A DNA stretch of 64,000 nucleotides, taken from assembly GCF_044647545.1 (NCBI RefSeq), contig NZ_CP172818.1; one strand, 5' to 3'. This document shows positions 6,913 to 45,417 of this stretch, in pieces. The position numbers and the translations under genes are program-made. The stretch's first letter is position 1. Every line of letters begins with the position of its first letter. This DNA is from Escherichia coli (GTDB taxonomy: Bacteria; Pseudomonadota; Gammaproteobacteria; Enterobacterales; Enterobacteriaceae). Under the pieces are notes generated by a model, which saw only the letters and a list, made by a program, of their open reading frames with translations, did not search any database and was not told where the DNA came from.

Positions 6913-8301
6913 TCAGACCCGGTCTTTCCACACCGTCTGGATATTACAGAATTCGTGTAAGCCAAAATGGGAAAGCTCACGCCCAAAGCCACTCTTCTTC
7001 ACACCACCAAAGGCGACTCGCGCGTCGCTGGCACAGTAACCATTGATAAACACCCCACCGCATTCCAGACGTGCCGCCATCTGTCTGGCCCGGGTTTCGT
7101 CGGTGGTGAAAATGGTCGCTGAAAGGCCGAACTCGCTATTATTAGCCAGTTCCAGTGCATGTTCTGCATCTTTCGCAATGGTGATTGCCGCAACGGGGCC
7201 AAACATTTCTTCCCGAAACGCGGTCATTTCTGGGGTAACATTCGCCAGAACCGTTGGCGGATAGTAGTTACCTGCCCCAGCCATCTTTTCCCCGCCCAGT
7301 AACAAACGCGCACCCTGCGCCAGGGTTTTCTCCACCTGATGATGCAGCTCATCACGTAAATCAAAACGAGCCATTGGTCCGAGAGTGTTCTCTTCGTCAC
7401 GGGGATCGCCCATTTTCAAGGCTGCCGCAGCTGCCACAAAACGTTCGGTAAATGCCGAAGCAATTCCCTCTTCGATGATAAAGCGTTTTGCCGCTGCACA
7501 AACCTGTCCGGTATTCTGATAACGTCCGGCTACCGCCGCTTTAACCGCCAGTTCCAGATCGGCATCGTTAAGCACAATAAATGGATCCGAACCGCCCAGT
7601 TCCAGTACGCATTTTTTCAGTGCCGCTCCAGCCTGTGCGCCAATAGCCGCTCCCGCACGAACACTTCCGGTCACCGTGACAGCAGCAATGCGCGAGTCTT
7701 TAATCATCTGACTGACGCCGTCGTTGTCGGCATTCAGCCAGCCATATACGCCTTGTGGGATACCCGCATCTTTAAACACCTGGGCAATGAGCTGTGCACA
7801 GCCCATCACATTCGGCGCATGTTTAAGTAAGTAGCCGTTACCTGCAAGAATGATGGGAACCGCGCCACGCATCACCTGCCATAACGGAAAATTCCACGGC
7901 ATAATCGCCAGAATTGTCCCCAACGGTCGATACTCAATAACTGCCTGCTGATTTTCCACCAGCGTAGGTTCCGCCTTCAGCATTGCCGGACCATGTTCTG
8001 CATACCAGTCACACAAATTCGCCGATTTCGCCACTTCAGCGCGCGCCTGGTTGATTGGTTTGCCCATTTCACGGGTGATCATTTGCGCCATTTCTTCGCT
8101 ACGGACACGCAGAGCCTTACCGATATCACGCAGTTTTTCAGCACGATAATCTATATTTGTCTCGCGCCAGTCGCGAAAGCCTGCTGCCGCCAGCTGAAGT
8201 GCGTTTTCGATATCATCAGCGCCAGCCCACGGCAGCACAGAAAGTTGTTCACCGGTGGCAGGATTTATCGAAATTGCATGAGTTGCCGGAGTAATGGTCA
8301 T
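6913..8301 (-). CDS. sad: NAD-dependent succinate-semialdehyde dehydrogenase Sad (YneI), 462 aa
   Basis: 462-aa ORF; aldehyde dehydrogenase motifs (ELGGSDP, catalytic Cys region QVCAAAKRF). Confidence 0.9.
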
Positions 8302-8401
8302 CGGGGTATCTCCTTTATGGGTTATGGTAAAAAGATACGCAGATTTACTCTTGCTTGAAAATGAATAATATTAAGCCACTTATTCACGAATCGAGAATAT
8401 T

Positions 8402-9283
8402 ATGGATCTGACCCAACTGGAGATGTTCAACGCGGTTGCCGAAGCTGGCAGCATTACCCAGGCTGCAGCAAAAGTGCATCGCGTGCCGTCGAATCTCACT
8501 ACCCGTCTACGCCAGCTGGAAACAGAACTGGGGGTTGATCTGTTTATTCGCGAGAATCAGCGTTTACGTCTCTCGCCTGCCGGGCATAACTTTTTACGCT
8601 ATAGCCAACAAATTCTCGCGTTAGTGGATGAAGCGCGGAGCGTTGTCGCTGGCGATGAGCCGCAAGGTTTATTTTCTCTTGGTTCGCTGGAAAGCACCGC
8701 TGCAGTGCGCATTCCGGCCACGCTGGCGGAATTTAACCGTCGTTATCCCAAAATTCAGTTTTCACTTTCCACCGGCCCTTCCGGCACTATGCTGGAAGGT
8801 GTGCTGGAGGGAAAACTGAATGCAGCGTTTATTGATGGGCCCATTAACCATACTGCCATTGACGGGATACCGGTGTACCGCGAGGAGCTGATGATCGTCA
8901 CGCCACAAGGACATGCGCCAGTAACCCGCGCCAGTCAGGTAAATGGCAGTAACATTTATGCCTTCCGCGCCAATTGTTCGTATCGTCGCCACTTCGAGAG
9001 CTGGTTTCATGCTGATGGTGCCGCTCCGGGAACTATTCACGAGATGGAGTCGTATCACGGGATGTTGGCCTGTGTGGTCGCAGGAGCAGGCATTGCGCTT
9101 ATTCCACGCTCTATGCTGGAAAGTATGCCGGGGCATCACCAGGTTGAAGCGTGGCCGTTAGCTGAGCAATGGCGTTGGTTAACAACCTGGCTGGTCTGGC
9201 GTCGCGGTGCGAAAACGCGTCCGCTTGAGGCATTTATTCAACTACTGGATGCGCCTGACTCGGCAAAACAGGGTTACCAATGA
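8402..9283 (+). CDS. yneJ: LysR-family transcriptional regulator YneJ, 293 aa
   Basis: N-terminal HTH ([23 protein letters not shown]); divergent from sad. Confidence 0.85.
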
Positions 9284-9360
9284 GCTATTTTTGATAGTTC
9301 TTGCGGCTAATATGCTCTATATAGTGATGTTCCGATGACTTATGACTATATGGGGCAAAT

Positions 9361-10476
9361 ATGGTTACGCCAGTAAGCATCAGCAATTACATATCTCTTC
9401 CTGATGATTTTCCCGTACGTAATATTGCACCGCAGGTAAAAGAAGTTTTAAAGGATTTCATTGATGCACTTAGTACAATAATATGTGATGAAGAATGGCG
9501 CACGTCTTTAAACATCAACTCAGCCACAAAAAAGATATTTAATAACCTTGACAACTTATCATATATTCAGAGGACTTCTTTTCGGGGTAACGACACGCTA
9601 TACAATGAAAAGGTTCAGTTTAAACTCACTTATCCCGTCAAGAATGGAAGACACAAAGAAAATATTGAATTTCAGGTAGTAATAAATTTAAGCCCTATTT
9701 ATTTAGATAATTTCCGCCATGATGGGGAAATTAATATTTTTTGCGCTCCCAACCCAAAGCCTGTCACTATGGGGCGCGTATTTCAGACCGGCGTCGAGCG
9801 TGTACTCTTTCTGTTTCTGAATGACTTTATAGAACAATTTCCAATAATCAACCCTGGCGTTCCTATCAAAAGAGCGCATACGCCACATATTGAACCCCTG
9901 CATCCGGATCACCATACCGCTGCAGATTACATACGCCAGTTTGATTTGCTTGTCCTGAATTTTATCTCTCGCGGTAATTTTGTCATACTCCCCCGATTAT
10001 GGAATAACTCTGAGGTTCACAGATGGTTCGGGAATAAAGAACCTAACTTGCTCACCGCTATTCTCGACATAACGGACAGCGAATTAAAAGAGGATTTATT
10101 GCAAAGTCTGATGGATTCACTAGGTTCTAACAAACATGTACTACCCGAAGTCTGCATCTGCTTTTTATCCCTTTTAGCAGAACAAGATTTTCCACATTTT
10201 CAGGAGTTGTTTTTATTTTTCGCCAATATGTTATTGCACTATCACCAATTTATGAAACCCAATGAAAGTGATTTGATTGACGTGTTGATGCCAGCATCAT
10301 TAAGTGATGATAAAATTATCAAACATATGGCGCGCAAGACCCTCAAACTTTTTGTAAAAAATGAAACGCCGCCAAAAGTTACTCATGAAGACCTGGTGAA
10401 AAACAGGCCTCGCTCCCCTGTCAGACCACCTATACCCGCAACCTCCAAAACGCCAGACCTCCCTGAACGTCATTAA
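9361..10476 (+). CDS. yneK: uncharacterised protein YneK, 371 aa
   Basis: 371-aa ORF in AT-rich DNA with atypical codon usage; position matches yneK. Confidence 0.75.
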   Translation: MVTPVSISNYISLPDDFPVRNIAPQVKEVLKDFIDALSTIICDEEWRTSLNINSATKKIFNNLDNLSYIQRTSFRGNDTLYNEKVQFKLTYPVKNGRHKENIEFQVVINLSPIYLDNFRHDGEINIFCAPNPKPVTMGRVFQTGVERVLFLFLNDFIEQFPIINPGVPIKRAHTPHIEPLHPDHHTAADYIRQFDLLVLNFISRGNFVILPRLWNNSEVHRWFGNKEPNLLTAILDITDSELKEDLLQSLMDSLGSNKHVLPEVCICFLSLLAEQDFPHFQELFLFFANMLLHYHQFMKPNESDLIDVLMPASLSDDKIIKHMARKTLKLFVKNETPPKVTHEDLVKNRPRSPVRPPIPATSKTPDLPERH

Positions 10477-10625
10477 ACCGTGATGTGACCGACTCTCTGA
10501 CGCGTGAAAGAATCAGCGTCAGAGAAACGGAAAACGCGATCCAGATCACAAATGCATTGTATTCACATCATTAACCGTTTTAAGATCATTTCATCACTTT
10601 TTCGCAACTCACCCGATAATCTGTT

Positions 10626-11816
10626 ATGACAACAAACACTGTTTCCCGCAAAGTGGCGTGGCTACGGGTCGTTACGCTGGCAGTCGCCGCCTTCATCTTC
10701 AACACCACCGAATTTGTCCCAGTTGGCCTGCTCTCTGACATTGCGCAAAGTTTTCACATGCAAACCGCTCAGGTCGGCATTATGTTGACCATTTACGCAT
10801 GGGTAGTAGCGCTAATGTCATTGCCTTTTATGTTAATGACCAGCCAGGTTGAACGGCGCAAATTACTGATCTGCCTGTTTGTGGTGTTTATTGCCAGCCA
10901 CGTACTGTCGTTTTTATCGTGGAGTTTTACCGTTCTGGTGATCAGTCGCATTGGTGTGGCTTTTGCACATGCGATTTTCTGGTCGATTACGGCGTCTCTG
11001 GCGATCCGTATGGCTCCGGCCGGGAAGCGAGCGCAGGCTTTGAGTTTAATAGCCACCGGTACAGCACTGGCAATGGTATTAGGTTTACCTCTCGGGCGCA
11101 TTGTGGGGCAGTATTTCGGTTGGCGAATGACCTTCTTCGCGATTGGTATCGGGGCGCTTATCACCCTTTTGTGCCTGATTAAGTTACTTCCCTTACTGCC
11201 CAGTGAGCATTCCGGTTCGCTGAAAAGCCTCCCGCTATTATTCCGCCGCCCGGCATTGATGAGCATTTATTTGTTAACTGTGGTGGTTGTCACCGCCCAT
11301 TACACGGCATACAGCTATATCGAGCCTTTTGTGCAAAACATTGCGGGATTCAGCGCCAACTTTGCCACGGCATTACTGTTATTACTCGGTGGTGCGGGCA
11401 TTATTGGCAGCGTGATTTTCGGTAAACTGGGTAATCAGTATGCGTCTGCGTTGGTGAGTACGGCGATTGCGTTGTTGCTGGTGTGCCTGGCACTGCTGCT
11501 ACCTGCGGCGAACAGTGAAATACACCTCGGGGTGCTGAGTATTTTCTGGGGGATCGCGATGATGATCATCGGGCTTGGTATGCAGGTTAAAGTGCTGGCG
11601 CTGGCACCAGATGCTACCGACGTCGCGATGGCGCTATTCTCCGGGATATTTAATATTGGAATCGGCGCGGGTGCGTTGGTAGGTAATCAGGTCAGTCTGC
11701 ACTGGTCAATGTCGATGATTGGTTATGTGGGCGCGGTGCCTGCTTTTGCCGCGTTAATATGGTCAATCATCATTTTTCGCCGCTGGCCAGTGACACTCGA
11801 AGAACAGACGCAATAG
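10626..11816 (+). CDS. sotB: MFS sugar efflux transporter SotB (YdeA), 396 aa
   Basis: 396-aa ORF with about 12 predicted TM segments; recognised. Confidence 0.9.
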
Positions 11817-11819
11817 TTG

Positions 11820-11844
11820 AAAGGCCCATTCGGGCCTTTTTTAG
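11820..11844 (+). terminator. rho-independent terminator after sotB
   Basis: aaaggcccattcgggcc hairpin followed by T6. Confidence 0.6.
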
Positions 11845-12506
11845 TGGTACGTTTTAATGATTTCCAGGATGCCGTTAATAATAAACTGCACCCCCATACA
11901 TACCAGCAGGAATCCCATCAGACGGGAGATCGCTTCAATGCCACCCTTGCCCACCAGCCGCATAATCGCGCCGGAGCTGCGTAGGCTTCCCCACAAAATA
12001 ACCGCCACCAGGAAAAAGATCAGCGGCGGCGCAACCATCAGTACCCAATCAGCAAAGGTTGAACTCTGACGCACTGTGGACGCCGAGCTAATAATCATCG
12101 CTATGGTTCCCGGACCGGCGGTACTTGGCATTGCCAGTGGTACAAAAGCAATATTGGCGCTGGGTTCATCTTCCAGCTCTTCCGACTTGCTTTTCGCTTC
12201 CGGTGAATCAATCGCTTTCTGTTGCGGAAAGAGCATCCGAAAACCGATAAACGCGACGATTAAGCCGCCTGCAATTCGCAGACCGGGAATCGAAATGCCA
12301 AATGTATCCATCACCAGTTGCCCGGCGTAATACGCCACCATCATGATGGCAAAGACGTACACCGAGGCCATCAACGACTGACGATTACGTTCGGCACTGT
12401 TCATGTTGCCTGCCAGGCCAAGAAATAACGCGACAGTTGTTAATGGGTTAGCTAACGGTAGTAACACCACCAGCCCCAGGCCAATTGCTTTAAATAAATC
12501 TAACAT
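11841..12506 (-). CDS. marC: MarC-family inner membrane protein, 221 aa
   Basis: 221-aa hydrophobic ORF divergent from marRAB. Confidence 0.9.
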
Positions 12507-12599
12507 TGGTGGTTGTTATCCTGTGTATCTGGTTTATCAGCGAAAAGTATAAGGGGTAAACAACGATAAAGTGTCACTCTTTAGCTAACCTTGCATCGC

Positions 12600-12717
12600 A
12601 CTGACCAAAACTTGAACCGATTTAGCAAAACGTGGCATCGGTCAATTCATTCATTTGACTTATACTTGCCTGGGCAATATTATCCCCTGCAACTAATTAC
12701 TTGCCAGGGCAACTAAT
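12600..12717 (+). promoter_or_regulatory. marO: marRAB promoter/operator with marbox (12619-12643) and two palindromic MarR sites (about 12662-12678 and 12697-12715)
   Basis: gatttagcaaaacgtggcatcggtc marbox; TTGCC..GGCAA palindromes tacttgcctgggcaata and ttacttgccagggcaacta immediately upstream of the GTG start. Confidence 0.8.
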
Positions 12718-21476: not shown

Positions 21477-22163
21477 ATGACCGTCGAAACGCAACTTAAT
21501 CCCACACAGCCTGTCAATCAGCAGATTTATCGTATTCTTCGTCGCGACATTGTCCATTGCCTGATTGCTCCAGGCACACCGTTGTCGGAAAAAGAAGTTT
21601 CTGTTCGTTTCAATGTGTCACGCCAGCCGGTTCGTGAAGCCTTTATTAAACTGGCGGAAAACGGCCTGATTCAAATTCGTCCGCAGCGTGGCAGCTACGT
21701 CAACAAAATTTCCATGGCCCAGGTGCGCAACGGCAGTTTTATCCGTCAGGCCATTGAGTGCGCGGTGGCGCGTCGGGCGGCGAGCATGATTACCGAAAGC
21801 CAGTGCTACCAACTGGAACAAAATCTTCACCAGCAACGCATTGCCATTGAGCGCAAGCAACTGGATGATTTTTTTGAACTTGATGACAACTTCCATCAAC
21901 TCCTGACCCAGATTGCCGACTGTCAACTGGCGTGGGAAACCATTGAGAACCTGAAAGCGACCGTTGATCGCGTGCGCTATATGAGTTTCGACCACGTTTC
22001 TCCACCAGAAATGCTGTTACGCCAGCATCTTGAGATTTTCTCTGCCCTGCAAAAACGTGATGGCGATGCGGTAGAACGTGCAATGACGCAACATTTGCAG
22101 GAAATCAGCGAATCTGTGCGCCAGATCCGCCAGGAAAACAGCGACTGGTTTAGCGAAGAGTAA
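21477..22163 (+). CDS. ydfH: GntR/FadR-family regulator YdfH (RspR), 228 aa
   Basis: N-terminal GntR HTH plus FCD domain. Confidence 0.85.
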
Positions 22164-22339
22164 TTCATTTCCTCTCATCCCATCCGGGGTGAGAGTCTTT
22201 TCCCCCGACTTATGGCTCATGCATGCATCAAAAAAGATGTGAGCTTGATCAAAAACAAAAAATATTTCACTCGACAGGAGTATTTATATTGCGCCCGTTA
22301 CGTGGGCTTCGACTGTAAATCAGAAAGGAGAAAACACCT

Positions 22340-22543
22340 ATGACGACCTACGATCGTAACCGTAACGCAATCACCACTGGCAGCCGTGTTATGGTTAGCG
22401 GCACCGGTCACACTGGCAAGATCCTGTCGATTGATACTGAAGGTCTGACCGCTGAGCAAATCCGCCGCGGAAAAACCGTAGTTGTTGAAGGTTGTGAAGA
22501 GAAACTGGCACCTCTGGACCTGATTCGTCTCGGCATGAACTAA
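22340..22543 (+). CDS. ydfZ: YdfZ, small protein, 67 aa
   Basis: 67-aa ORF with strong terminator immediately downstream. Confidence 0.85.
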
Positions 22544-22550
22544 GCGTGTG

Positions 22551-22580
22551 AATGCCGCCGATGGCGGCATTGCTTTTTTT
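22551..22580 (+). terminator. rho-independent terminator after ydfZ
   Basis: aatgccgccgatggcggcatt hairpin followed by T7. Confidence 0.7.
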
Positions 22581-24039
22581 ACTTCACGGAATATTTCGCC
22601 ACGGTCGCTTTCGCACCATGCGCTAATAAAGACAAGTACGCTTCCGTCACTTTTGCAGTAAACAAGCTATTGTCTGGCAAATCATCACCAAAGATCGCCT
22701 TAATCGCCAGCAATGACTGGACGCGCGCTTTCCCTTCGGCACTACTTTGTACAGCCTTCTGAATAACAGGTAACAGTGGGTCACTGATTTCTATCGGATT
22801 TCCCTGTTCATCAACACCACCGACATAACGCATCCAACCCGCGACGCCTAGCGCCAGCAGATCGAACTTGCTGTCATGCGCCAGATGCCAGCGAACAGAA
22901 TCCAACATCCGCTGTGGCAATTTCTGGCTGCCATCCATCGCAATCTGCCAGGTTCGATGACGTAGCGCCGGGTTGCTATAGCGTTCAATTAATCGGTTAG
23001 CGTAATCTTGCAAATCAACGCCCTGCACTTTCAACGTCGGCGCTTGTTCATGCAACATCAAGGCATACGCTGCATGACGATAATGTTCATCTTCCATGCA
23101 GTCATTAATGTGCTGATATCCGGCAAGATAACCCAGATACGCCAGGAATGAATGACTGCCGTTGAGCATGCGCAACTTCATCTCTTCATAAGGCAGCACA
23201 TCACTAACCAGTTCGGCTCCCGCTTTTTCCCATTCCGGACGTCCGGCAACAAAGTTATCTTCTATTACCCACTGGCGGAAAGGTTCACAGGCAACGCCAG
23301 CAGGATCGCGCACACCGGTAAGTTGTTCGATTTTCGCCAGCGTATCCTCTGTCACTGCGGGCACAATACGGTCCACCATTGTTGATGGGAAAGTCACGTT
23401 TTCTTCGATCCATTGTGCCAGTTTTACATCAACAGCTTGCGCGTAGGAAGTGACAACGTCACGCATAACATGACCGTTTTCTGGCATGTTGTCACATGAC
23501 ATGACGGTAAATGCGGGAAGTCCTGCCGCTTTACGGCGAGCCAGCGCCTCGACAATCACCCCTATTGCAGTTTTCGGCTGGTGGGGATTTTGTACATCGG
23601 CAACGACCATCGGGTGATCGGGCATTAACTGTCCGGTCGCCGGAGAGTGGAAATACCCTTTTTCGGTGATTGTCAGAGAGACAATCGCGATTTGCGGTTC
23701 ACACATCGCAGCCAACACGGTTTCTAAGCCATCAATCTGTACGTGCAAGGCTTTTTTAACGACGCCAACGACGCGAGCCGTCCACGCATCGGCCGACATT
23801 TCCGCAACGGTATAAAGATTATCTTGCTGTTGTAAATCGGCAATTTGCTGTTCGCCGCCGATTAAATTGACCTCATAATATCCCCAGTCACTGAAATGTT
23901 CCGTAGCAAGAATATCGGCATACACACCCTGATGCGCACGGTGAAATGCACCAAAGCCTAAATGAACAATTCTTGGGGCCAGGTTATTACGATCATAAAC
24001 AGGGAGCGTCGCTTTTGCTGATAACAAATTATTTCCCAT
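22579..24039 (-). CDS. ydfI: mannitol/mannonate dehydrogenase-family oxidoreductase YdfI, 486 aa
   Basis: 486-aa ORF, paralogous to UxaB/UxuB-type enzymes. Confidence 0.9.
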
Positions 24040-24128
24040 AACAATTCCTTAAATTTAAATATGGCAAGCTGCATGTTTTGTTATATGAATAAAAAATCCC
24101 CTCTCCGGTAAGAGAAGGGATGGAGGAT

Positions 24129-25412
24129 TTACAGACTTCTTGAAGGTTGCGCTGCTGTTACAACACGCGGTTGATCTTCCGCGGCATCTTCCAGTGCACT
24201 TAAATCACGGTCTTTCACTTCTGGCATTTTCAGCGCAGAGATTAAACCAATCACTGAATATGCCATGATCATAATGGCGATCGGATACCAGGATTCCGTC
24301 ATGGTGCAGAAAATACCCGCCAGGATAGGACCAAAACCGGAAGCGATAAGACCACCAATTTCTTTAGAAATAGCCATCCGGGTAAAGCGGTTTTTACAGC
24401 CGAACATTTCTGCCATGGTAATGTTTTCCAGAGCAAATAATCCCAGCACCGCACAGTTATGAATCACAATCAGTGCAACCATAATGGTGCTCGGGGCATA
24501 GCTTTTATCTACGATGATAGAAAGCATTGGCCACGCCAGCACAATCGCAGAGGTATTCATAATAATATACGGGATCCGGCGACCTATTTTATCGGATAAC
24601 CAACCAAGGAACGGAATGGTCATAAAGCCGAGAATCGAACTGATCATCAATGCATCTGTTGGAATTGCTTTGTTAAACAATAACGTCTGCACTAAATAGC
24701 CTGCAAGGAAAGTCTGAATTAAACCTGAGTTACCAGCCTGACCAAAACGCAGCCCTGTTGCCAGCCAGAAGGATTTGCTCTGGAACATGCTACCAGCAGG
24801 TGCAGGTTTTGCTGTCGGTTGATTGCTGTCGTTAACCTTCTCAAAGACCGGGCTTTCTTTCAGATTCATACGCAACCAGATAGCAAAGACCATCACGACA
24901 ACGCTCGCCAGGAACGGTATACGCCATCCCCACGCCAACAGTTCCTCTTTACTGAGAATGAAGAACATAAAGGCCCAGATTGCCGTTGCGCTCAAGGTTC
25001 CGCAGTTAGTCCCCATAGCAACAAATGAGGAGATAATTCCGCGCTTACCTTTTGGCGCATATTCCGCCAGCATCGTACCGGCACCGGAAATTTCCGCACC
25101 TGCACCCAATCCCTGAATAATACGCAGCGTCACCAGCAAGATGGGTGCAAAAACACCAATCTGTGCATAGGTCGGTAACACACCAATTAAGGTGGTACAG
25201 ATCCCCATCATGGTGATGGTAATAAAGAGTACTTTTTTACGCCCTATTCTGTCGCCCATTTTGCCGAAAATAAATGCTCCGACAATACGCGCCACATAAC
25301 CTGCACCGTAGGTTCCCATTGCCAGAATTAACGCCATTGCCGTTGATGATTCAGGAAAAAATATTTCATGAAACACTAACGCTGCGCCGAGCGAATATAA
25401 CTGGAAATCCAT
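24129..25412 (-). CDS. ydfJ: MFS transporter YdfJ, N-terminally truncated by prophage insertion (427-aa remainder)
   Basis: ORF starts at MDFQLYSLGAALVF, inside the first TM region; the missing N-terminus (MTIEKHERSTKDLVKAAVSGWLGTALEFMDF) lies at 46250-46342 on the far side of the prophage. Confidence 0.85.
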   Translation of the reverse strand: MDFQLYSLGAALVFHEIFFPESSTAMALILAMGTYGAGYVARIVGAFIFGKMGDRIGRKKVLFITITMMGICTTLIGVLPTYAQIGVFAPILLVTLRIIQGLGAGAEISGAGTMLAEYAPKGKRGIISSFVAMGTNCGTLSATAIWAFMFFILSKEELLAWGWRIPFLASVVVMVFAIWLRMNLKESPVFEKVNDSNQPTAKPAPAGSMFQSKSFWLATGLRFGQAGNSGLIQTFLAGYLVQTLLFNKAIPTDALMISSILGFMTIPFLGWLSDKIGRRIPYIIMNTSAIVLAWPMLSIIVDKSYAPSTIMVALIVIHNCAVLGLFALENITMAEMFGCKNRFTRMAISKEIGGLIASGFGPILAGIFCTMTESWYPIAIMIMAYSVIGLISALKMPEVKDRDLSALEDAAEDQPRVVTAAQPSRSL

Positions 25413-25416
25413 AATT
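25403..25416. repeat. attL core copy
   Basis: gaaatccataattc; 11 identical bases plus TTC shared with the right-end copy. Confidence 0.6.
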
Positions 25417-26198
25417 CACAGGTGTTTTTTCCCATCCTGTGGTTTCCTTGGCGTTTTCTAGGTTTTTTCAGATAGTTGCATTTTTTAAAAAGCATCCTAA
25501 GTTCGATCTCAGTGTCTATCTGGGGCCTATTTCTGTCCCATATATGCCCCAAAAAAAACTCCCCAACAGATAAGTAGTTTTTTCATGGATTTATGCGTAA
25601 AATCAAGAACGGCTGGAAATCATTCAATACTCACACTATCGAAAAATTTACCAGCCAACCGCAGCACGTTCTTGCATAAGGCGTGTCTGCGGTTTTTCAA
25701 CTATTCAGATACATCACTCCCATCACATTCATTCCTCCGCATCAAAGGCATATAGGCTATATCACCTTGATATTTTTCTTTTTCAGATAAAAACTGTTAT
25801 CTATGTATACTTTTAAACCCAATCCGTGTAGAGTCTCTGCATAAGATAGTTTACAGTTGCCGCTTCAGCTTGCGCCATAAACCGCCTGATTTTTGCTGCC
25901 ACCTGTTAGCATTCCTGTATACCTGAAACGACAATGTTTATCTACGAACTTTAAGAACACCCAAGATAAAAATTGTCAACTATATCATATATAACACATT
26001 ACTAATTCGAGGCTATATGAACAGCATACTGATAATCACATCTCTCCTTATCATATTCAGCATTTTTAGTCATGCCCTAATAAAATTAGGGATTGGCATA
26101 TCCAATAACCCAGACAAAACCGATGTATAAGTCAACATATCCTGAATCAGACATACAATATCGCAATGAAAATCAATAATATTTTAAGGAATATCTTC

Positions 26199-26432
26199 AT
26201 GAAATCAAAAGACACCCTAAAGTGGTTCCCTGCGCAGCTTCCTGAAGTAAGAATTATCCTAGGGGATGCTGTAGTGGAAGTAGCAAAACAGGGAAGACCT
26301 ATCAATACCAGAACATTGCTTGATTACATTGAAGGAAACATAAAGAAAAAATCATGGCTGGATAACAAAGAATTATTACAAACAGCGATATCAGTTCTTA
26401 AAGACAACCAAAATTTAAATGGTAAAATGTAA
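26199..26432 (+). CDS. ydfK: Qin prophage protein YdfK, 77 aa
   Basis: MKSKDTLKWFPAQLPEVRIILGDAVVEVAKQGRP... Confidence 0.8.
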   Translation: MKSKDTLKWFPAQLPEVRIILGDAVVEVAKQGRPINTRTLLDYIEGNIKKKSWLDNKELLQTAISVLKDNQNLNGKM

Positions 26433-26748
26433 TATAATAAACTTACTTTTTTATCATTTTTCCACTTTAACAACATTTTGCTCCACTTTTCCACGACCAA
26501 ACAACTTGAAATCTGGTTAAAATAACACGCAACACTATTCTTCTTCCTTGAGTCCGCCCGGAACTCGAAAAACAAACCGAGTTAAAGCCTTTTTTCACAA
26601 AATCGATTTTGGGTCTCACCAAAATTACGGGGTTGCATACGCATTCGTTTATTTTCGAACGTGTACATACAAATATGCACAAAAATAATCATAATTATTT
26701 TCTGAGATGCATTATGATATGAACACCAATTTCGTATAGAGTCTCACT

Positions 26749-27339
26749 ATGTCTCGAATTTTTGCTTACTGTCGGATATCAACGCTGGATCAGACCACCG
26801 AAAATCAACGCCGGGAAATCGAAAGTGCAGGTTTTAAAATCAAACCTCAGCAAATAATCGAAGAACACATTAGCGGCTCAGCAGCAACCAGTGAGCGTCC
26901 TGGTTTTAACCGGTTGCTTGCTCGCCTGAAATGTGGTGATCAATTGATTGTGACAAAACTGGATCGCCTTGGTTGTAATGCAATGGATATCAGGAAAACA
27001 GTGGAACAACTGACCGAAACAGGTATCAGAGTGCATTGCTTAGCATTGGGTGGCATTGACCTGACCAGTCCAACAGGAAAAATGATGATGCAAGTAATTT
27101 CAGCAGTCGCTGAATTTGAACGAGACCTTTTACTTGAACGCACTCATTCCGGGATAGTAAGAGCCCGCGGCGCAGGGAAACGTTTTGGTCGACCACCTGT
27201 GTTAAATGAAGAACAGAAACAGGTGGTATTCGAACGAATTAAGTCAGGTGTAAGTATAAGTGCCATTGCCCGGGAATTCAAAACCTCGCGGCAAACCATT
27301 TTAAGAGCCAAAGCAAAACTTCAGACACCTGACATATAA
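26749..27339 (+). CDS. pinQ: serine DNA invertase PinQ (Hin/Gin/Pin family), 196 aa
   Basis: N-terminal resolvase catalytic region ([17 protein letters not shown]) and C-terminal HTH. Confidence 0.95.
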
Positions 27340-27436
27340 AAAATAATCTCGGTGTGAGATGCTTTACGTCTTCCAAGCCCCCTTCCTTGCCGTAAATGGA
27401 AAGATACATCTAATTATAGAATTTATATGTTTTACC

Positions 27437-28011
27437 CTACGGCAGTGCTGGCCATTCAATATCCTGTGCAGTTGACGTATCAACACGGTTCAGCAATACC
27501 CGATACTTTTTCCATGCTTCCAGCAACGGGGTTTCTTCCTCCGTTGCAATTTCCAGATCTGCAGCATCCTGAAGCGGCGCAATATGCTCACTGGCTACCT
27601 GCATCAGGTTGTTTTTTTTTCTTCCGCTTCCCGTATCCGAAACAGTTTTTCTGCTTCCTCATCATTCACCCAGGATACGCCGTCCCACTTCTGATACTCC
27701 CCTGCTGGCGACAACCAGGTGACATTCTCTGGTAGCGGTCCGAGTTCAGAAATAAACAATGCGTCCCCCGACGCCACGTCATAGACCGTTTTACCACGAT
27801 GGTCTTCAACAATATTCCACGATTCATTTTCACTGTTAAAAACTGCCACAAAGCCAGCAGGAATTTCCGGTGGGGCGATATCTGTAGAATTAGCTGGCAG
27901 CCCTGTATGAGGTGGAATATATGCGTCACCTTCACCAATAAACTCATTAGTTCCGGCCAGCAGGTTATAAATTTTTACGGTACGTGATTGTTCACTCATT
28001 CTGAATGCCAT
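27437..28011 (-). pseudogene. tfaQ: tail fibre assembly protein TfaQ, frameshifted at a 9-nt homopolymer (27612-27620)
   Basis: N-terminal frame stops after ...EAEEKKTT at 27604; the C-terminal part ([22 protein letters not shown]...DIEWPALP*) continues in another frame to a stop at 27437-27439. Confidence 0.7.
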
Positions 28012-28934
28012 TATGCAAGCCTCACAATATAATTAAATGCGATGTTTTTAACGGTGTTTTCCGCGTTACCAGCAGCGTTAACGGTGATGGTGTGTCCATG
28101 TGAACCAATCTTAACAGAGTGCGTATGAGCGCCAATACCAACAGTGTGTGCATGTGCCCCAGCACTTGTAGCGGTACCTGATACTGAGTGGGTATGTGCG
28201 CCAGAAGAAGGCACAGTTCCATTCCCCACCACCGTGCCACTTGATGAACCATCCAGCCAGTCGAAATTCATACCGCCACTGTTTGGTCTCCTTAATGGAA
28301 CGGTATGAGTATGTGCGCCAGCACTATTTGCAGTACCAGATACATTGTGGGTATGTGCACCTGTGTTATTCGTTGATTTAGTACCGTAATCAAACGACGA
28401 TGTGGTTTTCGTACCCAAATCCGTACTGGATGCGCTGGCACTGTGGGTGTGCGATTTAATGCCATCCTGTTCCTGAGACAATACGGCCCGACCACTGGCG
28501 GGTTTGCCCTTGATTGTCCAGCCGCGCATATCTGGAATAACACCAGAAGGATAGGCAATAGCCAGTTTCGGATATGCTGCCTTATCAAACGTCTGCCCCT
28601 GCATGATTGCATAACCTGCAGGTGGCGTATCTGATGGCCACGGGATTGGTGCACCGACTGGATAAAACTCTGCAGGAGGATGAGCCGAGGTGTAAAGCTG
28701 CGCCCACGGCGACCAGTTTGCGTCGGTCGTATCCCGTCGTGAACGAATAAATGCCGGAGCATGAGCACCGCTTGTACCACTCCAGCCGATGAGTAACTCA
28801 CCTTCGCCAACGGCTGTCATCCCTTTCAGGTGAATGATATTTCCATACGCTGTTGGATATCCGTTGTTATACACCTCGTATAACTCAAGACCTGCTGCCC
28901 CCTGCGTATTGTCTGTCAGCGCGGTTATATTCAC
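28011..28934 (-). CDS. stfQ: side tail fibre protein fragment StfQ (YdfN); Gly/His-rich repeats
   Basis: 307-aa ORF with repeated [11 protein letters not shown]-type units; stop overlaps tfaQ start (TAATG); the 5' end overlaps nohQ so the true start is uncertain. Confidence 0.65.
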
Positions 28935-29454
28935 TCAGCAACCCCGGTATCAGTTCATCCAGCGCGGCTGCTTTGTTCATGGCTTTGATAATATCCCGTT
29001 TCAGGAAATCAACATGTCGGTTTTCCAGTTCCGGAAAACGCCGCTGCACCGACAGGGGGAGCCCGTCGAGAATACTGGCAATTTCACCTGCGATCCGCGA
29101 CAACACGAAAGTACAGAATGCGGTTTCCACCACTTCAGCGGAGTCTCTGGCATTCTTCAGTTCCTGTGCGTCGGCCTGCGCACGCGTAAGTCGATGGCGT
29201 TCGTACTCAATAGTTCCTGGCTGGAGATCTGCCTCGCTGGCCTGCCGCAGTTCTTCAACCTCCCGGCGCAGCTTTTCGTTCTCAATTTCAGCATCCCTTT
29301 CGGCATACCATTTTATGACGGCGGCAGAGTCATAAAGCACCTCATTACCCTTGCCACCGCCTCGCAGAACGGGCATTCCCTGTTCCTGCCAGTTCTGAAT
29401 GGTACGGATACTCGCACCGAAAATGTCAGCCAGCTGCTTTTTGTTGACTTCCAT
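28885..29454 (-). CDS. nohQ: terminase small-subunit (Nu1) homologue NohQ, 189 aa with altered C-terminus
   Basis: [46 protein letters not shown]... as in lambda Nu1; C-terminal residues diverge, consistent with a deletion junction. Confidence 0.85.
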
Positions 29455-29630
29455 TGTTCATTCCACGGACAAAAACAGAGAAAGGAAACGACAGAGGCCA
29501 AAAAGCTCGCTTTCAGCACCTGTCGTTTCCTTTCTTTCAGAGGGTATTTTAAATAAAAACATTAAGTTATGACGAAGAAGAACGGAAACGCCTTAAACCG
29601 GAAATTTTTCATAAATAGCGAAAACCCGCG

Positions 29631-29642
29631 AGGTCGCCGCCC
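29631..29642. other. cosN cohesive-end site, within a lambda-like cos region (about 29455-29700)
   Basis: aggtcgccgccc is the reverse complement of lambda cosN GGGCGGCGACCT; flanks match my recollection of the lambda left end (cosB) and right end (cosQ side). Confidence 0.75.
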
Positions 29643-29841
29643 CGTAACCTGTCGGATCGCCGGAAAGGACCCGCAAAATGATAATAATTATCATCTGCAT
29701 GTCACAACGTGCATCTACGCCATCAAACCACGTCAAATAATCAATTATGACGCAGGTATCATATTAATTGATCTGCATCAACTTAACGTAAAAACAACTT
29801 CAGACAATACAAATCAGCGACACTAAATACGGGACAACCTC

Positions 29842-30075
29842 ATGTCAACGAAGAACAGAACCCGCAGAACAACAATCCGCAACATCCGCTTTCCTAACCA
29901 AATGATTGAACAAATTAACATCGCTCTTGATCAAAAAGGGTCCGGGAATTTCTCAGCCTGGGTCATTGAAGCCTGCCGCCGGAGACTGTGCTCAGAAAAA
30001 AGAGTTTCTCCTGAAGCAAACAAAGAAAAGAGTGACATTACTGAATTGCTCAGAAAACAGATCAGACCAGATTGA
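29842..30075 (+). CDS. ynfO: Qin prophage protein YnfO, 77 aa
   Basis: 77-aa ORF MSTKNRTRRTTIRNIRFPNQMIEQ... Confidence 0.75.
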   Translation: MSTKNRTRRTTIRNIRFPNQMIEQINIALDQKGSGNFSAWVIEACRRRLCSEKRVSPEANKEKSDITELLRKQIRPD

Positions 30076-30131
30076 AGCAATTTAGATAATCGTGCAGACT
30101 ACGCCCCTCATATCACATGGAAGGTACCACA

Positions 30132-30542
30132 ATGGCTCAGGTTGCCATTTTTAAACAAATATTCGATAAAGTGCGAAATAATTTAAACTATCACTGGTTT
30201 TATTCTGAACTAAAACGTCACAATGTCTCACATTACATTTACTATTTAGCTACAGAGAATATTCATCTTGTTCTTGAAAACGATAATACGGTTTTAATAA
30301 AAGGACAGGGTAAGGTTGTAAATGTAAGATTTTCAAAAAATAAATGCCTTATAGAAGCCACCTTAAAAGGATTCAAATCAGGAGAGTTATCATTTTACGA
30401 ATACAGGAAAAATCTTGCTACAGCAGGGGTTTTCAGATGGATTACAAATATCCACGAAAACAAAAGGTATTACTATACCTTTGATAATTCATTACTCTTT
30501 ACTGAGAACATTCAGAACACTACACAAATATTTCCGCACTAA
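30132..30542 (+). CDS. ydfO: Qin prophage protein YdfO, 136 aa
   Basis: Start at [13 protein letters not shown]... Confidence 0.8.
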
Positions 30543-30731
30543 ATCATAACGTCCGGTTTCTCTCACTCCTGAGCCGGACTGCATTGGTTTAATAAAAACC
30601 ATCGACAATCGAGATTTATATCTATTCGGTAATGTTTAAATATAACAAAACCCCGTAAAAACGAGGTTTATGGGTAATTTGTATTGTTGAATAGCATCTG
30701 ATGAGAAATTGATGCTAATACTATAAACATG

Positions 30732-30905
30732 CTAGATTAAATCAATCTTGATATCATAGCTTTCAAGACCAGTCATTTTTTCCCGTGCAGTAAACTGGAT
30801 ACTGGTAACTTCTTTCCCGGTCTTTTTCTTAAGCTCAATGATTTTTTTTGTTATATATTCAGAAATATCTGCTTCTGTTTTTGTTTTTAACTCTTCAATG
30901 TTCAT
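30732..30905 (-). CDS. gnsB: GnsB (GnsA/GnsB family), 57 aa
   Basis: MNIEELKTKTEADISEYITKKIIELKKKTGKEVTSIQFTAREKMTGLESYDIKIDLI. Confidence 0.85.
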   Translation of the reverse strand: MNIEELKTKTEADISEYITKKIIELKKKTGKEVTSIQFTAREKMTGLESYDIKIDLI

Positions 30906-31077
30906 CATTTCCTCTTTTAGTCTGTTATGACTGTCCTGGTACACAGTAGTGTCAATTATATGGAGCAAACGTATAAAAGATAAGATGAAACATCGCAATA
31001 ATCAACATACGACGGTCTAAATTTCACACAAACAGATAAAGATGATTATCATTTATTATCAATGCATTAGAATCAAA

Positions 31078-31308
31078 TCAATTCAAGAGTCTCATTGCTG
31101 CTTCCAGAATTTCTTCTGAAGTTACATGTCGATCCGCTGCTACATAAATGACTTTATGATCTCCGGTCAGAGATGGAAACCCTGCAGCCATTACAGTGAG
31201 GTGTGTTGTTTCGCCATTTGGATATTCACGCATGATGGTGTTAACTCCGGTCATCACTGGCACTACCATTGCTGGTTCAGAGTTAAAAAAAACTATTATT
31301 TTTTTCAT
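31078..31308 (-). CDS. ynfN: Qin prophage small protein YnfN; start uncertain
   Basis: 89-aa ORF; several in-frame Met candidates (MKKIIVFF..., MREYPNG...). Confidence 0.5.
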   Translation of the reverse strand: MKKIIVFFNSEPAMVVPVMTGVNTIMREYPNGETTHLTVMAAGFPSLTGDHKVIYVAADRHVTSEEILEAAMRLLN

Positions 31309-31579
31309 AATGTTACCGTAATATGTGAGTATCCATCGACTAGACACTAAGCAAAAAAGCTCCCGAAGGAGCCTTCATTTTCACTTTCTTAAATCTAACG
31401 ACAGATGGCTAACATTTAAGTATTGTGAAATATTATCAAATGTAATCATCATTGATTTACAAAAGATACATTTTGCCCCGAAAGGATTTCTGTCAGAAAC
31501 ATCAAAAGATGATGTTCTATACTGAGAACCATGGCAACACGGGCATCTAAAGTGAATATGGTTTGTAATATTTTCTACC

Positions 31580-31792
31580 TCAAAGTGCCACTACATGAAC
31601 AGCTGCAGGGCCTTTAGGTCCGTTCTCAATACCAAATTCGACTTCCTGATTCTCAGTTAACGTTTTGAAATCGTTGCTCTGAATAGCTGAGAAATGCACA
31701 AACACATCTTTGCTACCATCTTTCGGCGTGATGAAACCAAAACCTTTTTCAGGGTTAAACCATTTCACTAAACCAGTCATTTTGTTAGACAT
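31580..31792 (-). CDS. cspI: cold-shock protein CspI, 70 aa
   Basis: [38 protein letters not shown]...; long AT-rich upstream leader. Confidence 0.9.
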
Positions 31793-32156
31793 CATTATTA
31801 CCTTTTGAAGAAGTTAGCCCTTGGGCAGAATGGTCCGAAAAAAAAATATCAGAGAGAAAAACCAACAAGGAAATCTCAAGAGGTACAAATAATAAAATTA
31901 TAACAATGACTGCTTCAGATAATTTTGTAACAAACCAGAACACCATTAACGCATGATTAACCAACCATAGCAAGGATTACTTTTGTAAAGAAAAACACAC
32001 GAATGAAACAATAGCTTTATTTATTAATAAAACGTGTCATTCTGTCTAATGACCTTTTATCTTACCCTTAAGATTTCAAGGATTTTGACTCATGGAAGAG
32101 TCCTTTTTATTTAAATTTCACATTCAGCGCTAAAAATAATCCGATTTAATATTAAT

Positions 32157-33180
<1,024 letters not shown>

Positions 33181-33184
<4 letters not shown>

Positions 33185-33492
33185 AGATATTTATGATGAG
33201 GACGCTCGTGCTTATTGGCAGGATTTTCAATCTTAAAGGAGTACTGATGCTGCAGATAAGACTCAACTTTTTCTGACAATTTTTCTGCTACTTCCAGGAA
33301 GACTTGCCGGACGCTCATTCTGGCTGCTGCCTCATAAAACTCCAGCGCAGCTCCTTCAACACGGTCCATGGCGACATCCAGGCCAAAAATTTCACCGTCA
33401 AAGCGTTCTTTGTCCTGTAAGGCTACAGTTACCGTAACTTTATTCTCAAAATTACGGACTCCTTTCACAACCAGTTCATAGTATTGAGTCAT
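33181..33492 (-). CDS. ydfR: Qin prophage protein YdfR, 103 aa
   Basis: 103-aa ORF between holin and endolysin. Confidence 0.75.
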
Positions 33493-33496
33493 TGGA

Positions 33497-33712
33497 TTAC
33501 TCTCCTCTCGCAGCCTTACGCCTGTCTTCTTTAATCTTGAAATAAAGATTTGTCAGGTACGTCAGCAGGCCAAATACCAGGCTACCCAGCACACCTATTG
33601 CTGCCCACTGTGAGGGCGTGACTTTATCGAGCAGCTGTAAAAACCAGTAGCCAGCACTGCCTGCGGAGGTGCCGTAGGCAATGCCTGTTGAAATTTTGTC
33701 CATGGATTTCAT
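33497..33712 (-). CDS. essQ: holin EssQ, 71 aa
   Basis: [31 protein letters not shown]... with TM segments and charged C-terminus. Confidence 0.8.
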
Positions 33713-33932
33713 AGCCTCACCTCCGCACGGAACGGATGGTGCAATATGTTTGAAAAGATCGGAGTCTACGGGGTAGTTTTGACAGCACACGTTGTTCTCA
33801 ACGGCGCTAAAAAAACATACACATTAAAAATGTGGGTAATTATTTTGAAAGAAAGTCATATATAAAATAATAATACGAGAAATGTTTTCATATTTAGTGT
33901 ACTGTATACGGCCATTTATACAGGAAAAGCCT

Positions 33933-34103
33933 ATGTCAGAACGTAAAAACTCAAAATCACGCCGTAATTATCTCGTTAAATGTTCCTGCCCAAACTGCAC
34001 CCAAGAGTCAGAACACAGTTTTTCAAGAGTACAAAAAGGTGCCCTTTTGATCTGCCCTCATTGCAACAAAGTATTCCAGACAAATCTTAAAGCTGTAGCC
34101 TGA
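33933..34103 (+). CDS. 56-aa zinc-ribbon small protein (two CxxC pairs); possibly the ribosome-profiling-identified small protein of this region
   Basis: AGGAAAA RBS 6 nt upstream of ATG; MSERKNSKSRRNYLVKCSCPNCTQESEHSFSRVQKGALLICPHCNKVFQTNLKAVA; hairpin downstream. Confidence 0.45.
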   Translation: MSERKNSKSRRNYLVKCSCPNCTQESEHSFSRVQKGALLICPHCNKVFQTNLKAVA

Positions 34104-34466
34104 TTGATTTTATTAGTAACAAGTATTTTTTATATTTTAATAATATATTTAAAGCAGATAATAAAAAACCCGCCTGAGCGGGTTTGAGATTGTGGTGCTT
34201 TTTGTGGGAGTCATCCACTTACGCACTTTGTTTTGCCATGCCAGCAGTTAGCTTCTGCTGTAAAACTATTCATGCAGCAAACCTGCACTTCACCACAATG
34301 GTTAGCATACTTTTCCTGATTAAGATTTTGCCAAATATGCTAGCCATTGTTTCATGTATTGGACCTCCTTACTTTTTATTAAAGAGATCCAATATTCACT
34401 ACTCTGTCCGTATCTCTACTCAGGCATCAGCCTTCTTCGTTATCGTATACAGACGAGCGATGAATT

Positions 34467-34682
34467 TTAATCAGTAATGATGACATTTGCTGCTGCAGGA
34501 CCTTTAGCACCACTCTCTATAGAGAAGGTAACCTTTTGACCTTCAAATAAGGTTCGATAATTATCATTCTGAATCGCAGAAAAATGCACAAACACATCTT
34601 TACTACCATCAACAGGAGAAATAAAGCCGAAACCTTTATCAGCGTTAAACCATTTTACTAAACCAGTCATTTTATTTGACAT
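34467..34682 (-). CDS. cspB: cold-shock protein CspB, 71 aa
   Basis: [38 protein letters not shown]... Confidence 0.9.
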
Positions 34683-34982
34683 TCTACATTCCTTAACTTG
34701 AGCCTTTCGGCATAAATGGTTTGCATAACAGAAACGACTTCGTACTTAATTGGAGAGACTCAAAGAAGGAATAAGTGAATAACACCTGAAATGAGAACTG
34801 CTTTAGTAAACTACTTCGTATATCGTCTGTTCTTCAAACCGACGCAATCATTAACGCATAGTTGAACATATGAAGCAATGTTTATTTTAGACATCCAGCC
34901 ATCTTCAACCCCATCAAAAAACTATAGCTTTCTTCAGGAACGTGTGTATAGTGCGCCAAGTTATCAGTATTAAGGAATTTTT

Positions 34983-35195
34983 TTGTCCCGTAAAATGACA
35001 GGAATTGTCAAAACCTTTGACGGCAAAAGCGGCAAGGGTCTTATCACCCCATCCGATGGTCGTATCGATGTCCAGCTTCATGTTTCAGCGCTCAATCTCC
35101 GCGATGCAGAAGAAATTACCACCGGATTACGCGTGGAATTTTGCCGGATAAATGGTCTGCGTGGCCCTTCAGCTGCCAATGTTTACCTTTCATGA
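34983..35195 (+). CDS. cspF: cold-shock-like protein CspF, 70 aa (TTG start as reported by the ORF track)
   Basis: [37 protein letters not shown]...; divergent from cspB. Confidence 0.85.
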
Positions 35196-37711: not shown

Positions 37712-37777
37712 CGGTTTTCTCCGGTGGCACGGTGTTACTCAGCGGGAGTTCAGCCCCGCGCAAGATTGTAGATGAGT

Positions 37778-40476: not shown

Positions 40477-40763
40477 CCAGTGGTAGCCTCCATAATTGCA
40501 GGCACTAGCGCCGTGAACTTTTCACGCTTATCCCTAGTGTCGATAGCCTTCCAGCGTTCGAATATCTTCACTCGATTAACGCCAAGCGCTCGCTGATCAA
40601 CCGCGCCACCTTCATCTGTGACACGCTGAACATCGATGTTCGGGCGCTCTTTCAAAGCCCAGAATGCTTCAGTGATTAATATCGTCGCCTGCTCCTGTGT
40701 CATTCCTGGTCGACATATCCAGGCATCCAGAGCCTCACGAGCCTGTTCAGGAGTGATTTTCAT
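40473..40763 (-). CDS. ydfX: Qin prophage protein YdfX, 96 aa
   Basis: 96-aa ORF overlapping dicC stop. Confidence 0.7.
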   Translation of the reverse strand: MKITPEQAREALDAWICRPGMTQEQATILITEAFWALKERPNIDVQRVTDEGGAVDQRALGVNRVKIFERWKAIDTRDKREKFTALVPAIMEATTG

Positions 40764-43037: not shown

Positions 43038-43225
43038 ATACAGCATTTGCACTTGTTCTGACAGTTTTTCTTGTTTCCGGAGAGCCAGTTGATATTGCAG
43101 TCAGTGTTCACAGGACAATGCAGGAGTGTGTGACTGCAGCAACCGAACAGAAAATTCCCGGTAACTGTTACCCGGTCGATAAAGTTATTCACCAGGATAA
43201 TAACGAAATCCCGGCAGGTCTTTAA
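43034..43225 (+). CDS. ydfD: YdfD, 63 aa small membrane (lysis-associated) protein
   Basis: MNTAFALVLTVFLVSGEPVDIAVSVHRTMQEC...; ATGA overlap with dicB stop. Confidence 0.8.
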   Translation: MNTAFALVLTVFLVSGEPVDIAVSVHRTMQECVTAATEQKIPGNCYPVDKVIHQDNNEIPAGL

Positions 43226-44917: not shown

Positions 44918-45417
44918 GTGATAAGAGAAGTCTGAAAGAGAAATATCCGACAGGCGTGGAAAACCATGGAGGGAAATTACGTATCTGTTTTTTATAAAGG
45001 CGTAAGAGCAGGGAAAACCTGGGGGTCGAAAAAGGAAAAAAAAGGCGCGTTGCAGGTGAGCTACGCGCCTCTGTTTGTTACGCAATAAAAACTGGTGTTT
45101 TCGACTATGCAAAACAGTTTCCCTCCTCACGCAATCTGGAAAAATTTGGTGAGGCCCGACAAGATTTAACCATAAAAGAACTGGCTGAAAAATTTCTGGC
45201 ACTGAAAGAAACTGAAGTCGCAAAAACATCACTCAACACATACCGTGCCGTCATCAAAAATATCCTGAGCATAATCGGTGAAAAAAATCTTGCCTCATCG
45301 ATTAATAAAGAAAAATTACTGGAGGTTCGTAAAGAGCTACTGACTGGATACCAGATCCCCAAAAGTAACTATATTGTTACACAACCAGGGAGATCGGCTG
45401 TAACTGTAAATAATTAC

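Follow-up and report, generated by a model that had tools for sequence, protein, structure and literature searches.

The window, a stretch of 64,000 nucleotides of Escherichia coli DNA, harbors between positions of about 25404 and 46265 a defective lambdoid prophage of the Qin type. The prophage is inserted in ydfJ and carries ydfK, pinQ, tfaQ and, further along, cspI, rzpQ, cspB and cspF in the K-12 order. Positions 23001-35000 are colinear with a K-12-type genome annotated with Qin genes; in such genomes the prophage, also in ydfJ, reads ydfK, pinQ, tfaQ, a truncated tail gene, nohA, ynfO, ydfO, gnsB and cspI. Beside the tail-fibre remnant, pinQ (26749-27339, plus strand) is an ORF for a 196-aa small serine recombinase, annotated as pinQ in K-12. 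The tail-fibre assembly gene tfaQ (27437-28011, minus strand) is split into ORFs of 135 and 55 aa by the loss of one base at 27604-27625 (GTTTTTTTTTC vs GTTTTTTGTTTC in K-12 and in phage PhiR42_1). It is adjoined by two overlapping ORFs on the same strand, stfQ (28011-28934, 307 aa, GTG start) and nohQ (28885-29454, 189 aa), and cosN (GGGCGGCGACCT, an exact match at 29631-29642, minus strand) has been kept upstream of nohQ.

The first-pass annotation had described NohQ as a match to the lambda small terminase subunit Nu1 over most of its length, with a diverging tail, and both statements hold. Residues 1-176 of NohQ (28927-29454, minus strand) are identical to those of lambda Nu1 at all 176 positions, and at 173 of 176 to those of PhiR42_1 Nu1. 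At the DNA level, the window from 29642 down to 28926 aligns with lambda nucleotides 1-719 at 99.3% identity, that is, from the first base of the cohesive end to Nu1 codon 176. Lambda Nu1 has 181 residues and ends in SEYIEQSG; in NohQ the last five (IEQSG) are replaced by 13 unrelated residues, which correspond to 13 out-of-frame codons and a stop read from the Nu1 frame into stf DNA (28885-28926, minus strand). On the other side, positions 28011-28925 (minus strand) hold codons 709/710-1025, the C-terminal 316-317, of a side tail fibre 1025 aa long, and StfQ residues 3-307 align locally with PhiR42_1 Stf residues 709-1025. Of a fibre made up of an N-terminal tail-attachment domain, a shaft and a C-terminal receptor-binding module, only residues of about 709-1025 are thus left.

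A three-way alignment of the window with PhiR42_1 24176-24255 and 45314-45393 places the joint at a TA dinucleotide shared by both parents (28926-28927), the Nu1 parent reading ...GAATA[TA]TCG and the stf parent ...CGGG[TA]ACC. With longer flanks, the window reads ...GAGTGAATA[TA]ACCGCGCTG, the Nu1 parent ...GAGTGAATA[TA]TCGAAC and the stf parent ...AAGGTCGGG[TA]ACCGCGCTG. The GTG start of the stfQ ORF and its next two codons (GTG AAT ATA, 28926-28934, minus strand) stand immediately before the stf DNA, in TGA GTG AAT ATA|ACC; the seven bases 28928-28934 come from Nu1 only, and 28926-28927 is the shared TA. Being built of Nu1 bases, this start codon is fortuitous, and the 50-bp overlap between the two ORFs (28885-28934), which had been noted before, is therefore a by-product of the joint and no real gene overlap.

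Intact Qin-like relatives are found among phage records, namely PhiR42_1 (PV340562.1) and mEp460_ev081 (LR597641.1). Their annotation comprises int, xis, dicA/dicC-type repressors, relBE, hokD, csp genes and lysis genes, then ynfO, the series Nu1-A-W-B-C-D-E-FI-FII-Z-U-V-G-T-H-M-L-K-I-J-lom, a 1025-aa stf and tfa, and, after tfa, a PinQ/PinR-type recombinase and a ydfK-like gene. In local blastn the whole window forms one colinear chain with PhiR42_1, from window position 25404 to 46265. The Nu1 alignment stops at 28926 and the stf alignment begins at 28927, phage positions 24217-45352 being absent; 21,138 bp are missing at the joint, with an overlap of 2 bp and no inserted DNA. The lost genes are A, W, B, C/Nu3, D, E, FI, FII, Z, U, V, G, T, H, M, L, K, I, J, lom and stf codons 1-708, which bears out the earlier statement that the head and tail morphogenesis genes between terminase and tail fibre are absent, and blastn against PhiR42_1 finds no gene for the large terminase subunit left in the prophage. 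In strains EC14 and S171-1, the same ydfJ site is taken up by full Qin-like prophages. Like the two phages, they are colinear with the window over the entire prophage, at 93-99% identity, but they hold the 21.1 kb of morphogenesis genes and the full 1025-aa stf that the window has lost.

The prophage is thus of the defective Qin type, with a single illegitimate deletion of 21,138 bp at 28926/28927, a reading to which we assign a probability of about 0.9. It is supported by colinearity with PhiR42_1 except for one gap, by the base-level TA joint and by the identity with lambda from cos to Nu1 codon 176, as well as by the fact that K-12-type genomes carry the same joint while intact Qin-like prophages sit at ydfJ. 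The flanks colinear with an intact relative, the lack of a mobile element and the 2-bp TA are those of a microhomology-type illegitimate deletion, and nothing in the evidence speaks against the deletion itself. Mapping against lambda and an intact Qin-like phage, as had been proposed, yields one clean breakpoint, and neither of them aligns continuously through it; a continuous alignment would have spoken against a deletion. Window positions 28656-28926 have no lambda homologue, and lambda therefore cannot place the stf-side end. The deletion joined Nu1 codon 176 to stf codon 709/710 over the TA. With it went the large terminase, all of the head and tail genes, lom and two thirds of stf, from the N-terminal side; it left a nohQ that ends in a nonsense tail of 13 codons, and a stf that lacks its N-terminal part and owes its ORF start to accident.

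The first-pass annotation had also held that a large internal deletion made the prophage cryptic. The deletion stands, but it is not the only lesion: the tfaQ frameshift and a second loss of about 4.8 kb at 40484/40485 are further lesions, so that crypticity cannot be assigned to the Nu1/stf deletion alone. The second gap corresponds to PhiR42_1 positions 7897-12695 in the early region and contains cII, O, other early genes and the phage's IS; its joint also has a TA overlap.

By itself the joint is the known and annotated nohA/stf' scar of Qin and of low interest; it only documents the loss of virion genes by Qin, which annotation already reflects, the K-12 counterpart of the stf remnant being labeled in RefSeq 'phage tail protein, incomplete, missing N-terminus'. 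Qin (Kim) of K-12, with nohA/nohQ and ydfN/stfQ, occupies the same ydfJ site with the order ydfK-pinQ-tfaQ-stf'-nohA-ynfO-ydfO-gnsB-cspI and has the identical joint ...GAGTGAATATAACCGCGCTG, the 60-nt left flank and the right flank being the same in L002 and in the window. The window differs from K-12 Qin by its frameshifted tfaQ and by a strongly diverged stf' block at about 28100-28650. In this block, 10-47 mismatches per 100 nt and indels separate it from both K-12 Qin and EC21Z-048, with the 300 nt beside the joint near-identical to both, a pattern that suggests patchwise replacement from another tail-fibre allele. Among 5,426 complete E. coli genomes, the best match over 26700-29500 reaches 94.7%, and the window is from neither K-12 nor any other of these genomes; the ydfI/ydfJ arm (22000-25400) is 97.7% identical to its best match.

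A 601-nt probe across the joint was covered to at least 80% in 375 of the same 5,426 genomes, many of them K-12 laboratory strains. Thousands of probe matches in this set end exactly at the joint, from either side, and the break in homology is no product of chance. Genomes with the Nu1 half only run on into a large terminase gene, and where only the stf half is present, a fibre gene of full length follows. Among GTDB species representatives, none contains the junction 25-mer. Other terminase-to-tail-fibre scars, in E24377A, XJ6.2 and DLI.5a, resemble the Qin joint in having lost everything from terminase to the distal tail fibre. DLP12, with nohD-aaaD'-tfaD', is a further scar of this kind. 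The joints of the first three lie elsewhere in stf (45416, 45545 and 45320), with 7-8 nt of microhomology where examined (E24377A and XJ6.2); the Qin joint, by contrast, has an overlap of 2 nt and lies on a nucleotide that recurs elsewhere.

This recurrence was detected by searching contigs from IMG/VR and from metagenomes for the 25-29 nt that follow the joint on its right, together with sampled BLAST matches in complete genomes. The stf-side endpoint, ...GGTCGGGT|AACCGCG..., is common to at least ten junction classes with different left partners; the DNA to its left in the intact class is ...CAAAAGGTCGGGTA. The retained stf DNA starts at one point in all ten, as ...A|ACCGCG in nine and as ...A|GCCGCG in L071, which has a variant stf allele. 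In PhiR42_1 coordinates, the left partner is Nu1 24216 in this window and K-12, gene A at 24377 (L069), 24452 (L014/L021 and 4-5 complete genomes) or 25447 (EC21Z-048), portal gene B 27407 (L019; one IMG/VR contig and no complete genome), gene I at about 38770 (L071), J at about 39640 (EC2001, in a Rac-like prophage beside trkG-ynaK) and the lom-stf spacer 43175 (L039). The remaining two are the V/G spacer of a different phage (L012) and a different terminase type (A30, at the Qin site). In EC21Z-048, which has a different cryptic prophage by bioA/ybhB, DNA from the interior of terminase A abuts stf at this very nucleotide. The ten classes are spread over three chromosomal loci (ydfJ, att-lambda/bio and Rac), and the DNA on their right is identical to that of different intact haplotypes. 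An endpoint that is the same to the nucleotide is thus combined with unrelated partners in at least ten classes, three loci and several haplotypes, although some of these classes are known from one draft contig each.

The ten events are all direct-orientation deletions, with no inversions among them. The join dinucleotide TA is present in six of the ten partners, L012 being counted from its product alone as the parent phage of its V/G partner was not identified; two partners share only the T and two only the A. Partner sites match the stf site at 5-9 of 26 positions, with a background of 6.5, and specificity is therefore one-sided. At one further locus, L052, it is the left side (...GGTCGGGTA) that is preserved, and the DNA joined to it comes from further to the right, within tfa. 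Joints elsewhere in the same loci, namely A|stf at 45320, 45416 and 45545 and several internal ones, are each unique and have 2-8 nt of microhomology. The recurrent nucleotide accounts for three of the six classes in a 600-nt interval that was sampled without bias as to position; if endpoints were spread uniformly, the chance of this would be about 2e-4. This is a rough estimate, the background joint rate is known only for this interval, and most of the classes at the site were found by a pattern blind to other positions. BLAST with the whole of stf was uninformative for an unbiased spectrum of endpoints, the best match per genome usually being a full-length stf in another prophage. We infer that the stf end of the Qin deletion is not random. 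A literature search on stfQ/nohQ/ydfN and intact Qin phages returned nothing specific, and as far as could be found the recurrent endpoint has not been described.

The sequence ...GGTCGGGT|AACCGCG... would act as a fixed breakpoint, to which a wide range of upstream positions has been joined, in many prophages, over 1-2 nt of overlap. The mechanism we favour, at slightly short of even odds, is that the DNA breaks or replication is arrested at ...GGGT|AACC..., followed by microhomology joining to upstream DNA. No nuclease, pause element or structure that would act at the stf site was identified, and the single-stranded fold of the site gave no hairpin or cruciform signal relative to shuffled sequence (z = -0.17). 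Cleavage at GGTNACC restriction sites was discarded as a cause, the phage having 15 such sites with no joints between them, as were Chi and cos-like elements, since no Chi site lies nearby and the resemblance to cosN is weak. The stf site is reminiscent of the deletion hotspots at rolling-circle nick sites, where one endpoint is fixed to the nucleotide and the other is variable, with little homology; Michel and Ehrlich reportedly described such hotspots in 1986 at the nick sites of M13 and pC194. Unlike in rolling-circle replicons, no nickase or origin was found at Qin, and the likeness is one of analogy only. It is possible, though we put it forward with reserve, that the site is a true hotspot of breakage or recombination with a TA crossover, which would seed cryptic deletions in lambdoid prophages and perhaps shuffle tail-fibre modules.

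Second to a break or replication arrest, and in our view unlikely, comes a site-specific recombinase with a TA crossover: a small serine recombinase (PinQ/PinR, encoded about 1.6 kb away) might cut a TA core in stf and use weak secondary sites upstream, as Cin does at quasi-cix sites. Invertases have been proposed as drivers of stf exchanges (PMC3945230, citing Sandmeier 1994). The fixed endpoint fits such an enzyme, as do the six TA partners with the others matching one base, the use of the stf site once in the opposite direction (L052), and the presence of an adjacent pin in the Qin and Rac types. In addition, an imperfect dyad, AGgtCGGg-TA-aCCGcgCT, surrounds the TA and is symmetric at about 5 of the 8 inner positions (p about 0.03), and the motif GTNGGGTAA recurs directly after the tfa stop codon. 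Recombination by Cin, Gin, Hin or Pin at quasi-sites similarly pairs a single fixed site with many partners that resemble it only weakly but share its 2-bp crossover dinucleotide. The stf site is unlike those of the Din family, however, in lacking a match to the 26-bp consensus, TTNTCNNAAACC-NN-GGTTTNNGANAA, in which strands cross over at the central dinucleotide. Mu gix and P1 cixL, taken from annotated records, do not align with the site when TA is set as the core: by manual count, the left arm then agrees with gix at about 1 of 12 bases. The gix-equivalent position lies about 530 nt upstream, and a consensus scan of the phage gave only chance-level matches, none of them at the stf site. PinQ is only 36% identical to Mu Gin, and its matches to NCBIfam serine-recombinase models are weak and all under cut-off; its own site may therefore differ, so that the consensus test is not decisive.

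Other observations also weigh against a recombinase. The intact phage was found to contain neither a partner copy nor an inverted repeat; in it, direct and inverted copies of the site do not rise above background except for the 9/10 half-site after the tfa stop; no inverted second copy bounding an invertible segment was found either, all 48 intact loci being in one orientation. Invertases favour inversion, yet the ten events include none. Four partners have mismatched cores, and L001, L014 and L039 have no pin in cis.

Common descent would dispense with repeated use of the site: one or a few founder joints would have been trimmed on the left by later deletions that chanced to stop at the old joint, or carried from prophage to prophage by homologous recombination. 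The Qin-type, L014, L019 and L001 joints have identical or near-identical right flanks, the window matches L001 at 99.6-99.8% identity to the left and right of the joint if a 229-bp indel is set aside, and the Qin-type joint is derivable from L001 via an ATA overlap. Nested derivation from few founders may apply to the subset that has one haplotype in common. As an account of the whole set, descent appears improbable. Every trimming step would need to stop no more than 1 nt from the old joint, itself the thing to explain, and several classes are not derivable from one another by a single deletion. L001, L014 and L069 each hold A segments missing from the others and are therefore not simple derivatives of one another, and L039, L063, L064 and L071 have other stf haplotypes or alleles and lie at other loci.

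CRISPR self-targeting is a far less credible source of a fixed break. A type I-E spacer against GTCGGGTAACCGCGCTGACAGACAATACGCAG would have its PAM, AAG, directly 5' of the protospacer and a Cas3 nick at protospacer position 7/8, which is the joint, and leftward deletions would remove PAM and seed; but in the one register and strand tested, the spacer is in no array of the 5,426 complete E. coli genomes, where the best full-length matches are repeats with unrelated spacers. Least credible of all is that no deletion took place and that cos-Nu1/stf-tfa-pin is a native satellite-like element borrowing the structural genes of a helper, as the retention of cos and most of Nu1 and the clustering of the left endpoints of many independent deletions just downstream of Nu1 might suggest, since the joint cuts both genes out of frame and inside codons, intact relatives at the same attachment site hold every intervening gene, and the sister Qin prophages XJ6.2, DLI.5a and A30 carry different A|stf joints.

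The recurrent endpoint lies at a boundary within the fibre gene. P1 Sv' (L062 6437-6684 and 7061-7275) has both Qin-type stf blocks, but in swapped order, which clearly exemplifies module permutation inside tail-fibre genes; the one with homology to the retained module starts with GGTCGCGTAACGGCC, aligned to GGTCGGGTAACCGCG, within 7 nt of the site. The homology of phage Ro157c2YLVW also starts at the hotspot, which therefore coincides with a tail-fibre module boundary. The site marks the start of the C-terminal receptor-binding module in Qin-, Rac- and lambda-type stf. Mosaic boundaries in tail-fibre genes are usually ascribed to selection on protein domains alone. Such selection can suffice for boundaries in functional fibres; the products of the junctions described here are out of frame, and protein-level selection therefore cannot explain the coincidence at the nucleotide. 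If the recurrent endpoint is a true hotspot, prophage decay in E. coli would be channelled in part through a specific DNA site rather than proceed by random deletion, and the mosaic boundaries of tail-fibre (host-range) genes would have a testable cause at the DNA level.

Several further endpoints were noted along the way. On the left side, eleven junctions in nine differently deleted prophages have their endpoints at PhiR42_1 (L005) positions 24082, 24199, 24216, 24374, 24377, 24452, 24453, 25257, 25391, 25765 and 27407, from the last 150 bp of Nu1 to the portal gene, and none of these prophages has lost cos or the greater part of Nu1. An 11-bp direct repeat, GTGTCGGTTAT, is present in terminase A (L005 24442-24453) and at the end of lom (43150-43160). 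Three types of junction end in its A copy: with stf (L014), with gene K at 37743 (L071) and apparently with lom (strain E94, H68), the E94 joint being deduced from one match line. A fragment of J begins at the same nucleotide (L005 39302) in L052, at about 6968, and in L064, at about 2668, with Nu1 (...CTGATACC) to its left in one and a ynaK-like gene (...GGAATACC) in the other, so J 39302 may be a second recurrent endpoint. The Qin site of XJ6.2 holds a 601-aa ORF (L066 1959-3764) that is labeled an intact large terminase but in which roughly 350 residues from the N terminus of gpA are fused in frame to the last 250 or so residues of Stf. Finally, after the tfa stop, window positions 27429-27442 (L005 46875-46888) read CCGTAGGGTAAAAC, which repeats the left half of the hotspot at 9 of 10 positions in direct orientation; in L038 an insertion, which we take to be IS1, apparently lies right at this repeat.
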